Shown one piece after another: positions 45,174 to 53,199 of a stretch of DNA of 64,000 nt. The number at the start of each line of letters is the position of its first letter. Within the stretch, counting starts at the first letter, position 1. The stretch is from the sequence record NZ_CP011600.1; one strand, given 5' to 3'. The translations under genes were made by a program, and so were the position numbers. Under the pieces are notes generated by a model. That model saw only the letters and a program-made list of their open reading frames with translations. It did not search any database and was not told the DNA's origin. This DNA comes from a plasmid.

Positions 45174-45207
45174 GACGTTCCCCCTCCGTTAATGTCAGTC
45201 AGCCGGT

Positions 45208-45723
45208 TCATGCTGCAGCCTCTCTCGCGACAATATGAAAGCGCATGCTGCTGTTTACCGGGACGCGCACCTGCTGATTCATCAGGTTCAGGAGGAGCAT
45301 GGCCCGCTTCATGCCGTCCGGTTCATACCACACGGCTTCGATACCTTCGAATGCACCATCACGGAGCATCACCCGGTCCCCGTGCTGTGGGGCGACTGTC
45401 TCCGGTGGCGCACTGCTCCAGCCCTGGCTGAGTTGTGTAATCACGCTGTCCGGTACCACGGAAGGCAGGCCACCGAAGCTGATGAGCGTCGAGATACCAC
45501 GCGTGGCTTTGATGGCCGTGGTGTGCACCACCTCCGGGTCAAAACGCACAAATATGTAGTTCGGGAACATCGGCTGCGGCGTTACCCCCCTGACCCTGCC
45601 ATTGTGCAGGCGGACCTCGGAGAGCATCGGCAGCAGGCACGTCACCCCCTGACTCTGCAGCTGTTGTTGCGCCCGCTTTTCCTGGGCGAACTTCGTCTGT
45701 GCCACATACCAGTTTTCCATCAC
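45208..45723 (-). CDS. RfaH-like NusG paralog (ActX-type plasmid transcription antiterminator)
   Basis: 171 aa. Aligns along its full length with E. coli RfaH (MENWYVAQTKF.QE.RAQQ.L..QGV.CLLPM...V......R..V..P.FPNY.FV.FDPEV.HTT.I.ATRG.S....FGG.P..VP..VI.QLS.......GD.V...GAFEG..A...EPDG..R.MLLLNL.N). Confidence 0.8.
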   Translation of the reverse strand: MMENWYVAQTKFAQEKRAQQQLQSQGVTCLLPMLSEVRLHNGRVRGVTPQPMFPNYIFVRFDPEVVHTTAIKATRGISTLISFGGLPSVVPDSVITQLSQGWSSAPPETVAPQHGDRVMLRDGAFEGIEAVWYEPDGMKRAMLLLNLMNQQVRVPVNSSMRFHIVAREAAA

Positions 45724-48520: not shown

Positions 48521-48823
48521 TTACTGCATCCAGTGCCGGTTGCCCGAATCGGGCACCCGCCGGAACTGCAACCGGAGCAGTGCGGTCGGCAGATACCAGT
48601 AAAGGAGGTTCAGGAGCCACCAGGTGCCCTGCCCCTTCTTCAGATGGCGGATTAACAGCCAGAGCGCGGCAGCCACAAACAGCATCACAATGAACATGTC
48701 GCAGAGCAGACCGATACCGGCGCACACAACAATGACAAAGGCCTCCTCGGGCGGGAGTCCGATAAAACGTTTCTGCTGATTGAGGGTTTCCGGGAACTGG
48801 TACTGAAGGGAGTCCCTGTCCAT
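48521..48823 (-). CDS. traL: TraL (VirB3-like)
   Basis: Start at MDRDSLQYQFPETLNQQKRFIGLP, matching F TraL (NKYRFPETLTNQSRWFGLP). Ends WYLPTALLR...VPDSGNRHW vs F WYMPTAMLRGIFHNVPDS. Confidence 0.8.
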   Translation of the reverse strand: MDRDSLQYQFPETLNQQKRFIGLPPEEAFVIVVCAGIGLLCDMFIVMLFVAAALWLLIRHLKKGQGTWWLLNLLYWYLPTALLRLQFRRVPDSGNRHWMQ

Positions 48824-48830
48824 GACAGGA

Positions 48831-49223
48831 TTAGCCAGCGAGGGCGAAGAAGCTGCGGGTGATAACAATCAGGAATGCCAGGCCACCAACAAACAGCATC
48901 GGGTTACGGGTTTTCATATATGCGGCAGCGGAAATGAGGACCTCAGCAATATACAGACCCCACTCCACCGTACTCCCGTGCCCGAAGGTATCCTTCGCAT
49001 CCTGTTTCTGACCGGAGAGCAGGTCTTCCGCGTGTCCCAGATGGGGCAGCGCGATGAAAACCACCGCCAGACACAACAGCAACAGATTAATGCGATGGCG
49101 ATAAATCAGACTGAAGGCACCACGCAGCATGCCGATAAACAACGATGACGCACCAGTCCGGACTTCCGGGCAGGCTTCCGCAGCCCCCTCCGCCAGCGCC
49201 GGTTGAGTTAAGACGACTTTCAT
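48831..49223 (-). CDS. traA: Propilin TraA
   Basis: 130 aa. Long leader peptide ending ...LPHLGHA followed by the mature pilin with a TM hairpin. First gene of the tra operon here. Confidence 0.75.
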   Translation of the reverse strand: MKVVLTQPALAEGAAEACPEVRTGASSLFIGMLRGAFSLIYRHRINLLLLCLAVVFIALPHLGHAEDLLSGQKQDAKDTFGHGSTVEWGLYIAEVLISAAAYMKTRNPMLFVGGLAFLIVITRSFFALAG

Positions 49224-49433
49224 GTCAGTTAGCCTCGATTTAAGTTAAGGAAATGTCATTGCGCGTAAACAGACGTAACGCGCGGTAAGTGTACATTTTC
49301 TCAAAAAAAAAAAATCTGTGACGCAAATCACGTTATTAGTGATTGTGATGCGATTTTTTAAGATTAATCCTGCAGCGGGGTGGAGTAGGCTTGCTGCCTG
49401 AACAGGGGATACCTCGTGAGGAGGTTTTTTTGT
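49224..49433. promoter_or_regulatory. Divergent promoter/operator region between traA and the tandem-RHH gene
   Basis: 210-bp interval containing an A12 tract and the palindromes AATCAC-n7-GTGATT and gtgac...gtcac (49333-49365). Strong SD GAGGAGG 9 nt before the plus-strand ATG. Confidence 0.5.
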
Positions 49434-50054
49434 ATGAAAGTAAAAGAAAAAATGGGTGACGGTCGTGGCAGGCCGCGAAAATATGCCAGAGGAGAAATGC
49501 AGTACCGGAAATTATGGTTACCGGAAAATTTACTGATGGAGCTGCGAGTGGCAGCAAGGGTCAGAAATTTCACCACCAATGATGAAATCATCAGCCGTCT
49601 TATTGCTTCGTTAAACTTTTCGCCGCGCCGGCATATTATCAAAACGGATGAAGGACAACGTCTTGTAGCGCTTGCACGGTTATTTGATGAGTTTCTTCAG
49701 GCAAGACTCGATGTGATTCGCAAAAAATATCAGGCAGAGAAAATCAGTGACAACGGTAAAAAAACATTTGTCCCGGGAAAGAACCGCGCATTCAGCAGCA
49801 GTTTCCCGGAGAATTTACGCCGGGATATGGAAGTCAGCGCCCGGTTTAACCGGCGAAGTATGAACAGGGAAATCATGGAGCGGCTTCTGGATTCACTGAA
49901 TTATTTAACCGAACAGCAGTTACCCGAAAATGAGGAAGTCTGGCGACTGCGTGAACTGGCAATACTGTTTGATGAGTTTATTTCAGGGAAAGTGGTAAAA
50001 GCAGAAAATCCGCTCACGAAGGAAGTGGCAGGTGAAGAGAAAAAAGAAGAGTGA
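49434..50054 (+). CDS. Tandem ribbon-helix-helix DNA-binding protein (TraY-like, two RHH repeats), divergent from traA
   Basis: 206 aa from an SD-preceded ATG. Two internally repeated modules each with a RHH signature (KLWLPENLLMELRVAARVRNFTTNDEIISRLIASL and SSSFPENLRRDMEVSARFNRRSMNREIMERLLDSL) followed by L..LA.LFDEF helices. Confidence 0.6.
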   Translation: MKVKEKMGDGRGRPRKYARGEMQYRKLWLPENLLMELRVAARVRNFTTNDEIISRLIASLNFSPRRHIIKTDEGQRLVALARLFDEFLQARLDVIRKKYQAEKISDNGKKTFVPGKNRAFSSSFPENLRRDMEVSARFNRRSMNREIMERLLDSLNYLTEQQLPENEEVWRLRELAILFDEFISGKVVKAENPLTKEVAGEEKKEE

Positions 50055-50597
50055 AGTTATAAGCAACCATTACGCATTATTAACGTTCTGAATCAGTACG
50101 GGCATTGTCTGTTTCACTCTGTAAATATACACACCGCAATAAGAATCCGTAATGTCACGGGGTAACGTCTCCCGATATTATTGCCATATCACAGCGACCT
50201 TTCACAGCGAATAAGGAAATCAGAAAGCGGGTGGCGTAAATGCCACCCGACACCGTCTGTAAAAACACACTTAAAAAATGCAAACGGGTCACCTCAGCCT
50301 CATGCATCGAAAAGCCTGTCCACAGCGTTATTTCGCGTATCTGTCCACCCACAACCATAACAGAATACACAGCCAGCCAGGACAGAACGCCAGAATCTTG
50401 CGACTTACAGAGCCCACTACAGAGATATCCTTCGCCGGGAAACCGGGCGGTAAATACGCTCCCGTTATTCGATATCAGCATCACGCATAAAAAACAGGGA
50501 GAGGAAACCGTCAGTGCTGAGAGGATACGTTCAGACCGGAAACATAAACACGACCGGCACGCTTCCGGTCATGCTTTATTTTTTTAAAACAGGGTAT

Positions 50598-50987
50598 TTA
50601 TTCTTCCTGAATAAAGTGTTTACTTTCTGCCTTATCTTCCGCATCGGACATCCCGGTAAGATTCAGGTCCATAAGCGCTTCCAGTTTATCCTGAGTGTTC
50701 TCTCCCCTGATTTGCAGATACATTTCTGTCATCATGGCCATCATGATACTCGTACCTTCACGCGTACCGGCCACCCTGCGTATTAAGTCACGATTGAATC
50801 CTTCCATATCGAATTTATTCCCTTCGCTCTGATGCTTTTTGACCATCAGGCCAATGCCGACCAGTTCATTCACCACGGACGAGAAGTTAACCTCGCCATG
50901 CGTGGCGCCGTTCTGCATTTCAATCTGGACCAGCTCCAGCACTTCCCGCTCGGTCTTTTCCTTGAAGTAGATGTTTCTTCGGCCCAT
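50598..50987 (-). CDS. traM: TraM relaxosome accessory protein
   Basis: 129 aa. Similar in size, position (adjacent to oriT) and architecture to F TraM (N-terminal RHH-like DNA-binding region, C-terminal tetramerisation domain ending in an acidic tail). Confidence 0.7.
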   Translation of the reverse strand: MGRRNIYFKEKTEREVLELVQIEMQNGATHGEVNFSSVVNELVGIGLMVKKHQSEGNKFDMEGFNRDLIRRVAGTREGTSIMMAMMTEMYLQIRGENTQDKLEALMDLNLTGMSDAEDKAESKHFIQEE

Positions 50988-51124
50988 TGTCCTGTCACCT
51001 CATGCCGCGCATAATGAAAACGCCCGGCAGTTATATGAATTAACGTAAATACGCTCACGCGGATGTAATATAAATTTGATGCGCGGGGATAACCTGTCCC
51101 GGATAATTATTCTCTCCGCATTCA

Positions 51125-51510
51125 GTGTGTGTCAATCCGGCACTGAGTAATATTTTTTTCAGGTGTGTGAATCCGGCACTGTTCACACCAAAAAGGTGTG
51201 TTAATTCAGCACTATGTATCAAAAACGTGTGTGTCAATCCGGCACTATACTGCGTTTTCGTGTGTGTTAATCCGGCACTGTGCCCTGTTTTTATGTGTGT
51301 TAATCCGGCACCATTCAGTATTTTAATGTGTGTCAATCCGGCACTGCACGCTGAAAATTTATCTATAATTCACTGATTTTAAATAATAGCCACAATAAAC
51401 ACACACCACAGTGCCGTTTACAGTGCCTGATTGACACACAATTAGGCACTGCATTGACACACAATCCGGCACTGCATTAACACACAATTAGGCACTGAAA
51501 CATGTGTTAA
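51125..51510. repeat. Array of ~12 copies of a 19-bp motif TGTGTGT(C/T)AATCCGGCACTG: 7 direct copies with ~33-bp periodicity (51125-51346) then 4-5 inverted/degenerate copies (51400-51510)
   Basis: Direct copies begin at 51125, 51162, 51195, 51227, 51259, 51293 and 51326. Inverted copies include cagtgcctgattgacacaca (51421-51440). Located between the traM promoter and oriT. Confidence 0.75.
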
Positions 51511-51559
51511 TTAACACACACTTTGATTTGAACAGGCTAAAAACAGGCAAAATATCAAT

Positions 51560-51625
51560 GTAAGCAACTGTTTTAAAAAACAAAAACTGCAAGATGAAAT
51601 CTTGCGTGGGGTGTGATGAAACTAA
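51560..51625 (+). promoter_or_regulatory. oriT: F-like oriT core with nic site ~51613/51614 (GCGTGGGGTGT|G) and adjacent inverted repeat gcaagat-gaa-atcttgc
   Basis: Sequence aactgcaagatgaaatcttgcgtggggtgtgatg matches the F/R100 nic region (TTTGCGTGGGGTGT|GGTG) including the conserved IR. Plus strand is the nicked/transferred strand, leading region to the right. Confidence 0.6.
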
Positions 51626-51791
51626 AAGAAGAAAAAGCGGCTTGTGAAATAGATCGAAGTTGTTGGATTTATTATATCTCTGTCTCCTTTCAGGGATGTG
51701 CAGCAAGCGCCCCGTGCGCGTCTGTAACGAATTATCTTGCAACGGATGATCTGAACGCGTATTTTTCACAAAAAACCGTCAGGCACATTTT

Positions 51792-52361
51792 GTGCGCGCA
51801 TATGAGATTATCAGAATGAAATGGTTAGCTATCGCTGGCTTTGCTGCCGTATTCAGCGCACAGGCCGCGCCGGAATTATGTTTCGATGAAGCTGGTCGTG
51901 ACTATGGTATTGATCCCACGCTTCTGATGGCAATATCAATACAGGAGAGCCGGTTAAATCCGACAGCCATTAACAGCGCCAGTGCGGGCGGTACAGAAGA
52001 CGTCTGTGCGATGCAGCTCAACAGTAATAATTTCGGCAAGCTGAAAAACTTCAATATCACGCGTAAGGATCTGCTTAATAATCCCTGCATCTGCGTGTAC
52101 AGCGGCGCATGGATTTTAGCCAGAAACTTCCAGGCCTACGGCAGGAACTGGGACAGTGTGGGAATGTATAATACAGGACCGAATCCAAAACTGATAAAAG
52201 CAAGGCGTGAATATGCGAGGATCATAAAAAGCATCTACACGGTACTGCTCGCCAGAAAACAGTTACTTGAGAAAGGCACAGGCGATCCCGTTAAAACGTC
52301 GCCATTCAGTGAAAATGCTGACCAGAGAACACCGGTGAAAGACGAAAAAAAGCCCGGTTAA
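51792..52361 (+). CDS. Lytic transglycosylase (F orf169 / R1 gene 19 / geneX family, SLT domain)
   Basis: 189 aa with signal peptide. Motifs (CFDEAGRDYGIDPTLLMAISIQESR, GAWILARNF, GMYNTGP) match F Orf169 ([25 protein letters not shown]). Confidence 0.85.
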   Translation: MRAYEIIRMKWLAIAGFAAVFSAQAAPELCFDEAGRDYGIDPTLLMAISIQESRLNPTAINSASAGGTEDVCAMQLNSNNFGKLKNFNITRKDLLNNPCICVYSGAWILARNFQAYGRNWDSVGMYNTGPNPKLIKARREYARIIKSIYTVLLARKQLLEKGTGDPVKTSPFSENADQRTPVKDEKKPG

Positions 52362-52377
52362 CCGGGCTTTTTATTTT

Positions 52378-53199
52378 CTAGCTCTTGAGCTTCGCAAACT
52401 CTTCGGCCATTTTCCACAATGCCTGATTAAGCTTTATGTCTCCGTCAATCCCTGTTACCGGGCGTGTGGTTGTATTTTTTCCTTTGGCCGTTCTGCCACG
52501 TAAACCACCCTTGATCAGGTTTTCCTGCACAGTGTTGTAGGTTGTCCAGAGGTCGGTTTGTTTATCTTCATAACGGCGCGGAACAAGAATTTTCTCTGCC
52601 GTGACGGGCGCTTCTTTGCCATCGTATTTAATATCGAGTGCGGTATTAGCGAGAAGGATTCTTTCGTCAGGAGAAACCGTGATCCCTTTCATCATCTCAA
52701 TATTTTCAGTGACATTATCAAATATCCCGAGCACCTCATATGCCCCTTCGATAACCTGCCCGACAATATCCCCTTTGTGAGGCACATTGATTTCCCCGAA
52801 TGACTTCCAGCAAACCAGACCATTCGTGCAGACCTGCCGATACATACCGGGGATCATTTTATAACTGCTGGACCCGTCGTGTGAGTTCAGTAAAAGAATC
52901 TCCGGCACTTCTTTACCCGAAAAATTATCGCCGCGACGTAAACGCAACATATGTTTCGTGAATTCCCGGCGGTCCGGATTACGTACACGTGACTGGCTGG
53001 CGTAATACGGCTGGAATCCCTCTTCACGCAGGCGATCCAGTAATGCGATGGTCGGAATATAGGTATATCTGTCAGAGCGTGATTCGTGTTTTTCCACTGA
53101 AAACGCGCTGGGAACAACACGCATCAGTTCATCATTCGTGAGAGGACGATTCTGGCGAATTGATGTCGGCGCAGCATAACGTGATGATAAACGGATCAT
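52378..53199 (-). CDS. DUF932-family leading-region protein (F orf273-like)
   Basis: 274 aa from the ATG at 53199 with a perfect AAGGAG SD. N-terminus MIRLSSRYAAP...RPLTNDELMRVVPSAF...HESRSDRYTYIPTIALLD.LREEGFQPY.ASQSRVRNP is typical of DUF932 proteins found next to oriT. Confidence 0.6.
   Translation of the reverse strand: MIRLSSRYAAPTSIRQNRPLTNDELMRVVPSAFSVEKHESRSDRYTYIPTIALLDRLREEGFQPYYASQSRVRNPDRREFTKHMLRLRRGDNFSGKEVPEILLLNSHDGSSSYKMIPGMYRQVCTNGLVCWKSFGEINVPHKGDIVGQVIEGAYEVLGIFDNVTENIEMMKGITVSPDERILLANTALDIKYDGKEAPVTAEKILVPRRYEDKQTDLWTTYNTVQENLIKGGLRGRTAKGKNTTTRPVTGIDGDIKLNQALWKMAEEFAKLKS

Follow-up and report, generated by a model that had tools for sequence, protein, structure and literature searches.

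The window analysed here, a stretch of 64,000 nucleotides from a plasmid (sequence record NZ_CP011600.1; one strand, 5' to 3'), carries a dense array of short repeats between traM and an F-type nic site. This array is very probably the TraM-binding region of the transfer origin (oriT), i.e. the counterpart of sbmA-C of the F plasmid, in an expanded and regularly phased form. It is built from two blocks of related half-sites, overlaps a promoter-like site facing traM and is conserved among related plasmids, and its repeat word co-varies with the N-terminal beta-ribbon of TraM.

The array comprises about 25 half-sites, or about 12 unit equivalents, within about 395 bp, which bears out the count of some 12 copies in a first-pass annotation made from the sequence alone. 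Two blocks can be distinguished, separated by an AT-rich gap:

51126..51346, plus strand: left block, seven direct units of (T/G)GTGTGTYAATCCGGCACTG with an A- or T-tract in every spacer
51347..51393, no strand assigned: AT-rich gap between the blocks, holding a site that resembles the consensus of integration host factor (IHF)
51394..51522, no strand assigned: right, nic-proximal block, about 11 half-sites on an 11-12-bp lattice

The units of the left block start at 51126, 51162, 51195, 51228, 51261, 51294 and 51327. The seven direct copies described in the first-pass annotation are thus present, but their spacing is more regular than the 32-37 bp given there, namely 36 bp once and then 33 bp five times. 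Each unit is a composite of half A (GTGTGTYAAT) and half B (GGCACTG), within which GTGTG and GGCAC can be read as versions of one motif in opposite orientation (GTGYS/SRCAC). The register of the half-sites is ambiguous through the (GT)3 run: they may be read as GTGTG-N7-GGCAC, 12 bp from centre to centre, or as GTGTC-N5-GGCAC, 10 bp from centre to centre.

The right block is arranged differently from the left one. It has a degenerate A- half at 51395 and extra inverted B halves at 51410 and 51422. The one fully inverted unit of the whole array lies at 51421-51440; three 23-bp tandem units ATTRACACACAATNNGGCACTG follow at 51430-51498, each combining an inverted half A with a direct half B, and the block ends in the palindrome GTGTTAATTAACAC at about 51503-51519. 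This layout, including the terminal palindrome, is kept in relatives. Of the "inverted/degenerate copies" proposed earlier for this part, one is therefore a complete inverted unit, and the remainder resolve into inverted A halves with direct B halves, the two extra inverted B halves and the terminal palindrome. The array also runs on to about 51522 and does not stop at 51510 as had been assumed.

That the array is real, as the first reading of the sequence had it, follows from simple statistics. The 20-mer TGTGTGTYAATCCGGCACTG has seven matches at up to three mismatches in the window, all of them at 51126-51440, while shuffled sequences lead one to expect 0.02; outside these positions the full motif does not occur in the 64 kb at this threshold. 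The seventh unit of the left block (51195-51214) is more degenerate and was detected by a repeat search and a search permitting four mismatches. Repeat search and Tandem Repeats Finder together delineated a family with a period of 33 bp at 51126-51358 and the 23-bp tandem at 51430-51498. Among the seven units of the window identity is 0.87 in the core and 0.34 in the spacers, and judged by this difference the unit core is under selection. A logo of 92 distinct units from the clade to which the window belongs reads tttt.atGTGTGTyAATCCGGCACt, with 60-80% T in the T-tract of the spacer.

As a separate observation, the heptamer GGCACTG is over-represented in the window at large: it occurs 43 times on both strands compared with 11.75 expected from dinucleotide shuffles, and 34 of these occurrences lie outside the array, dispersed across the tra region.

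At 100% identity, the window matches pENT-812c (CP026189.1) of Enterobacteriaceae bacterium ENNIH2, an F-like plasmid typed as IncFIC, MOBF and MPF_F. The genes around the array are arranged in the order traB, traK, traE, traL and traA (all on the minus strand), a gene of the Arc family (plus strand), traM (minus strand), array, nic and a lytic transglycosylase gene. The elements that fix its position are as follows:

50598..50987, minus strand: traM, encoding a diverged Tra_M family protein of 129 aa
51589..51615, plus strand: nic region, consisting of a hairpin GCAAGATGAAATCTTGC (51589-51605) that overlaps TTGCGTGGGGTGT (51602-51614), with the leading region extending rightward
51816-52361, plus strand: lytic transglycosylase gene to the right of nic, with leading-region genes such as psiA and hok beyond it

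The oligonucleotide used for F nic is 5'-TTTGCGTGGGGTGT^GGT (PMC2504302). The sequence TTGCGTGGGGTGT|G at 51602-51615 matches its TTTGCGTGGGGTGT^GG part, so that the nick is predicted between 51614 and 51615. Because of this match the array can be placed inside oriT, between traM and an F-type nic, in the position that in F belongs to sbmA-C, to IHFb and to a portion of the TraY region (PMC3159463; bioRxiv 10.1101/2024.12.19.629322).

The nic region itself has a feature of its own. Directly 5' of nic there is a hairpin GCAAGA(T/C)-NNN-(A/G)TCTTGC whose 3' arm overlaps the relaxase recognition sequence. In 43 loci its seventh pair is either T.A or C.G, a compensatory change, and in none is it mismatched, while the loop is variable. 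A comparable inverted repeat is not evident in the F nic oligonucleotides quoted in PMC2504302.

Evidence for the nature of the array comes from its relatives. We gathered 46 loci from a plasmid collection (by megablast and tblastn) and from a scan of genome contigs, with TraM identities of about 35-100%; 45 of them were tabulated for co-variation. There are 343 plasmid homologues in all. Their hosts include Phytobacter, Pantoea, Rahnella, Brenneria-like Pectobacteriaceae, Enterobacter, Citrobacter, Klebsiella, Salmonella, Kosakonia, Cronobacter, Leclercia and others. In all 46 loci the repeats lie between traM and nic and show the two-block layout. This includes the hit H14, which was first taken for an orphan array without traM and turned out to sit in a full traM-oriT context. 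The type of the TraM beta-ribbon predicts the word of the array in 45 of 45 loci, with no exception:

R[RK]NIYFK, residue 5 Asn: words GTGTGT..GGCAC, 33 loci
R[VIL]G[IV]YLK, residue 5 Gly: words CGACAC and GTGCGA, 9 loci
RMGIYVK, residue 5 Gly: word TACGA, 3 loci

Expressed as numbers, GGCAC is found 8.2 times per locus where TraM has Asn5 and 0.2 times where it has Gly5, the latter arrays being made of GACAC or TACGA-type words. The same switch is seen at a second place. Sister clades have a 20-bp palindrome 20-24 nt upstream of traM, which reads CAGTGCC-N6-GGCACTG with Asn5 and TAGTGTCGG-NN-CCGACACTA with Gly5; the half-sites of these palindromic operators are 11 bp apart. The palindromes occupy the positions 20-43 nt upstream of traM in L010, L011, L013, L015 and L029-L043 and in L009, L014 and L036-L040. 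The clade of the window has no palindromic operator at the start of traM; instead, the -35 box of the promoter-like site lies inside the first repeat copy.

The protein encoded by traM fits the role of a reader of such words. Its N-terminal ribbon-helix-helix (RHH) beta-ribbon is M-G-R-R-N-I-Y-F-K, with Arg3, Asn5 and Tyr7, and it matches the Pfam family Tra_M (PF05261) with 46.8 bits at a cut-off of 27.7. A profile of nine family members matches, from residue 1 onwards, the TraM RHH domains 1DP3, 3ON0, 4QPO and 3OMY at E values of about 1e-6; the four domains include those of R1, pED208 and F TraM. Relatives of the protein are annotated as relaxosome protein TraM. A single-sequence AlphaFold2 model had a mean confidence (pLDDT) of 47.5 and was unusable. 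In the complex of pED208 TraM with sbmA the bases are contacted by residues 3, 5 and 7, and an exchange of residues 3 and 5 gives R100 TraM the specificity of F, a shift of 60,000-fold between plasmids (PMC3159463).

A second candidate reader is encoded on the other side of traM:

49434..50054, plus strand: Arc-family tandem-RHH gene, 206 aa, convergent with traM, with a Pfam Arc domain

The product carries an RHH-plus-helix module twice in tandem, by internal duplication (the halves are 39% identical, E = 3e-13), i.e. two RHH modules in one chain, the same design as in F TraY. F carries traJ and traY where the window has this gene. It might be thought, therefore, that the Arc-family protein binds the units and polymerises along them as TraY trains do at F sbyA; the first-pass annotation had named a tandem-RHH protein as a possible binder. 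The gene is found beside traM in most relatives and, since TraY binds in F between nic and sbmC (bioRxiv 10.1101/2024.12.19.629322), the nic-proximal block could in principle be partly shared. The comparison of loci nevertheless makes this very unlikely, since beta-strand types and array words dissociate in both directions. Arc proteins of the type QYRKLWL/AFSSSF accompany GGCAC arrays (as in the window) and TACGA arrays (L044, L045), and those of the type VEWRLRA/GYSMRI are found with both GGCAC and CGACAC arrays. Compared over their full length, the Arc proteins of the window and L044 are 78% identical and the TraM proteins 35%, and the array words differ; for L010 and L009 the values are 79% for Arc and 48% for TraM, and the words again differ. 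The arrays also persist in the Pantoea plasmids L008 and L017, where the adjacent Arc gene has been replaced by other genes. Moreover, the array motif has no copy in the vicinity of the Arc gene or in the traA promoter region (49224-49434 and 50055-50597). Because the word follows the TraM ribbon but not the Arc-family protein, traM and the array appear to travel together as one module, and the reader of the array is most likely TraM. The idea put forward at first, phased sites for a relaxosome accessory protein, is thus supported in its core, and the relatives favour TraM in that role.

Several observations on the Arc-family gene and its surroundings may be recorded here. The gene is on the strand opposite to the tra operon, neither traJ nor a canonical traY is annotated, and this arrangement is kept in most relatives. 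In L008 (2918-5387) and L017 (2941-5387) its place is taken by a HAMP sensor histidine kinase, a molybdopterin oxidoreductase fragment, a GNAT acetyltransferase and a response-regulator or helix-turn-helix gene, which may form a regulatory module of another kind for transfer. Between traM and the Arc-family gene, which converge, lies a gap of 540 bp with several unconserved small open reading frames (ORFs) and terminator-like hairpins at 50552-50570 (plus strand) and 50228-50249 (minus strand). An 11-bp tandem, AACAGGC(T/A)AAA in two copies, lies at 51531-51552 between the array and nic, roughly where F has TraY sites; it is not conserved in relatives. When the 135 bp upstream of nic were compared among relatives no word specific to the Arc type emerged. 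If there is an sby-like site, it more probably lies in the roughly 70 bp that separate the array from the nic hairpin and are poorly conserved. Further away, a gene annotated as an RfaH-type transcription/translation regulator (about 45207-45719, minus strand; L001:308-820) is situated directly downstream of traB in the transfer operon.

The spacing of the units varies among relatives in steps of helical turns. Arrays of the window's clade have 4-8 units spaced 33 bp apart, except that the first gap measures 36 or 47 bp. A sister clade that shares Asn5 has 3-4 copies of the very unit of the window at 23 bp, one helical turn less. The three-turn phasing noticed at the outset is thus genuine and has a two-turn version, and the TraM linker shows no indel between the two clades. 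The spacings of 23, 33, 36 and 47 bp correspond to about 2, 3, 3 and 4 turns of 11-12 bp. DNA in the crystal of TraM with sbmA is underwound to about 12 bp per turn (PMC3159463), and spacings in turns of 11-12 bp would be compatible with DNA of this kind. Copy number changes by whole units: the arrays of Phytobacter plasmids and of one Citrobacter metagenome-assembled genome (L002/L019) are shorter than that of the window by exactly one 33-bp unit (alignment length 768 bp for Phytobacter vs 801 bp for the window). In pPAT9B05 of Pantoea At-9b (L005:3051-3273) there are four or five 33-bp units that are nearly identical including their spacers, which indicates a recent tandem duplication.

Two further elements of the array region have likely equivalents in F:

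51106..51135, minus strand: promoter-like site facing traM, -35 TTGACA (51135-51130), 18-nt spacer, -10 AATAAT ending at 51106
51366-51378, minus strand: IHF-consensus-like site AATCAGTGAATTA, one mismatch to WATCAANNNNTTR

The promoter-like site agrees with the consensus at 11 of 12 positions, and its -35 box TTGACA sits inside repeat copy 1. In the clade, 17 of 17 loci have TTGACA-18-AATAAT (GATAAT in one of them) although the spacer sequence has diverged. The IHF-like site by itself is not above chance, since the consensus is not enriched in the window (24 matches, 34 expected). It deserves attention because its position is conserved in relatives: in 12 of the 17 clade loci it occurs at the same offset and on the same strand, in seven of them as a perfect match, while the N positions vary. 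In F, IHFb is located between sbmC and sbmB, so that an IHF site parts the promoter-proximal from the nic-proximal sites (PMC3159463; 10.1101/2024.12.19.629322). The assistance by IHF suggested in the first-pass annotation is supported by this fixed site between the blocks.

A possible mechanism can be put together from these elements. Each unit of about 19 bp would offer a pair of half-sites centred on GTG/CAC, inverted with respect to each other and some 10-12 bp apart, to be read by the two RHH dimers of a TraM tetramer; the geometry of the half-sites would resemble that read by the two RHH modules of the tetramer in F and pED208. Because of the 33-bp pitch of three turns and the phased A/T-tracts in the spacers, tetramers would come to lie on one face of curved DNA. 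As the -35 box of the putative traM promoter falls within the first unit, occupation of this unit by TraM should repress traM, which would amount to autoregulation. IHF would bend the DNA between the left and the right block. The compact nic-proximal block is likely, by analogy with F, to be the equivalent of sbmC that couples the relaxosome to the coupling protein TraD; here TraM would expose its C-terminal domains to TraD, and TraI would be assisted. We infer the binding of TraM and its stoichiometry, the wrapping or bending of DNA, the repression and the division of labour between the blocks from the arrangement of the sites. One may speculate further, although this is doubtful, that left block, IHF bend and right block fold many TraM tetramers into one curved superstructure, reminiscent of the ParR-parC segrosome, which could serve as a multivalent platform for hexameric TraD. 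If so, evolution could tune the frequency of transfer and the autoregulation of traM through the count of units (4-8) and the pitch (23 or 33 bp), and the natural shift from 23 to 33 bp would allow DNA-mediated cooperativity among TraM tetramers to be tested directly.

Some points weigh against TraM as the reader and against the mechanism as outlined. The protein is distant from characterised ones: it falls below the NCBIfam equivalog cut-off, and phmmer found nothing significant for it in the PDB (E = 0.27). The register of the half-sites could give a centre distance of 10 bp, which pED208 TraM does not tolerate, and no internal four-fold repeat is evident in the unit, unlike the four interleaved motifs 6 bp apart in F/pED208. 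The traM promoter, which was recognised by its match to the consensus, is a putative one. The co-variation, moreover, reduces to about three specificity classes of TraM and two to three exchanges of the module among phylogenetically related loci, so that it amounts to strong circumstantial evidence and not to proof. Finally, the two Gly5 classes (II and III) are alike at residues 3, 5 and 7 but prefer different words, so that either determinants outside the ribbon contribute or the words are not independent.

Even less probable than a role of the Arc-family protein is that a conserved host regulator, CRP or phosphorylated ArcA, binds the units and thereby couples transfer to the physiology of the host. 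A CRP site is of the type TGTGA-N6-TCACA, and phosphorylated ArcA recognises TGTTAA direct repeats at multiples of 11 bp. The unit with its TGTGT-N6-GGCAC bears a resemblance to the former consensus, and its TGTTAA/TGTCAA words, recurring at 33 = 3 x 11 bp, to the latter. The spacing of GTG...CAC is N9, however, compared with N8 for CRP, and the most highly conserved part reaches through CCGGCAC, a string that neither consensus contains. CRP and ArcA are essentially invariant in these Enterobacterales, whereas the word changes (to CGACAC or TACGA) with the type of TraM within the same host genera.

Iteron origins and the RHH-bound centromeres of the parC type also consist of direct repeats of about 20 bp with regular whole-turn spacing, and the array resembles them in both respects. 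It could then be a site of replication or of partition and incompatibility, bound by a Rep protein or a protein of the ParR/ParG type, which came to lie near oriT by chance. We rate this lower again. Such a site would be expected beside the gene for the Rep or Par protein that binds it and on a single type of replicon. The array is flanked by traM and the lytic transglycosylase gene with no rep or par gene adjacent, its word follows the TraM ribbon, and in all 46 loci it stays with traM and nic on many replicon types (IncFIC, IncFII, IncFIB and several rep_clusters). For the partition-like or exclusion role that had initially been considered no support was found.

Least probable of all is that the array has no function of its own, whether as a tandem repeat produced by slippage, an ORF encoded by the repeats or a degenerate array resembling a CRISPR. 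The units of Pantoea At-9b do show that tandem duplication occurs, copy number varies from 4 to 8, and a stop-free frame crosses the left block (ORF 51125-51376, 83 aa, with repeated CVNPAL, 33 bp being 11 codons); but the core is far better conserved than the spacers and is kept across genera, Rfam found nothing above threshold across 48800-52400, and repeats of 19 bp with T-rich spacers of 13-14 bp, mixed orientation in the right block and flanks free of cas genes do not fit a CRISPR, as the first-pass annotation had already concluded. A CRISPR array would show a leader, identical repeats no shorter than about 23 bp, unique spacers of much the same length and, as a rule, cas genes. A coding repeat in particular was rejected: several of the 17 clade loci (e.g. 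L004, L007, L008, L022, L024, L025, L027 and L028) have stops in all six frames, and a frame cannot hold through the shift of the period from 33 to 23 bp, 23 not being a multiple of 3.

TraM connects the relaxosome to the secretion channel and decides which plasmid a transfer machinery moves, and the number and geometry of TraM tetramers on oriT are poorly resolved even for F. The lineage described here is widespread in plasmids of Enterobacter, Citrobacter, Klebsiella, Salmonella, Pantoea and Phytobacter, and resistance genes are present on many of these plasmids. It provides a series of natural experiments: the switch of one residue (Asn5/Gly5) that goes with a switch of one base (GGCAC/GACAC), a spacing of two or three turns, and arrays of 4-8 units. 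Its main value may lie in this, as a natural test-bed for TraM specificity and DNA-mediated cooperativity. In addition, the motif classes could improve the prediction of oriT and of mobilisation specificity for these plasmids. The literature searches returned no paper for the exact motif and no description of the array in searches by topic. As TraM sites in oriT are already known, what is new is most likely the recognition word, the higher number of copies and the unusually regular spacing; the result refines the existing picture without changing it.

Short, helically phased repeats at a promoter, through which an RHH protein regulates its own synthesis and builds a nucleoprotein structure, are familiar from parC/ParR of R1 and from the heptads of the omega protein. 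By analogy the array shares with parC of R1 its many phased repeats, the arrangement in two blocks that flank or overlap a promoter and an RHH protein as the presumed reader. It differs from parC in that the latter serves partition, involves another protein family and has contiguous iterons of 11 bp, whereas here units of 19 bp recur at 33 bp and par genes are lacking. The TraY sites of F sbyA are similar insofar as a tandem-RHH protein binds in direct and inverted orientation within oriT beside an IHF bend; they are dissimilar because the word of the array does not co-vary with the TraY-like Arc-family protein.

A closer parallel is the complex of pED208 TraM with sbmA (3ON0). By profile, starting from residue 1, both proteins belong to the same family and fold class; the motifs are inverted and about 12 bp apart in pED208, where specificity is set by residues 3, 5 and 7 of the beta-ribbon, and the spacings of the present array are multiples of 11-12 bp. 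The pED208 site is unlike ours in being composed of the palindrome GANTC, four copies of which, 6 bp apart, hold two staggered tetramers on opposite faces of the DNA, and the N-terminal domain of TraM is only about 30% identical.

The nearest counterpart is sbmA-C of F, R1 and R100. There, too, the sites lie between the traM promoter and nic, the promoter-proximal ones overlap the traM promoter and serve its autoregulation, an IHF site separates promoter-proximal from nic-proximal sites, and the binder is the RHH N-terminal domain of tetrameric TraM, as we suppose for the array. The word is another one, GTGTGTYAAT-CCGGCAC here and A(G/C)CG(G/C)T in the sbm sites of F. F has three discrete sites, each with four interleaved motifs, giving about 12 in roughly 200 bp (PMC3159463); the window has seven 19-bp units at 33 bp plus a block of about 11 half-sites in about 395 bp, with 4 to 8 units in relatives. 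The statement that the copies far exceed the three sbm sites of F is correct insofar as the total is about double, but it overstates the difference, since the density is similar at about one half-site per 16 bp (PMC3159463; 10.1101/2024.12.19.629322). Three discrete sites within about 200 bp would seem to be a feature of F itself and not of the class, and their absence here probably marks a variant of the same kind of element.

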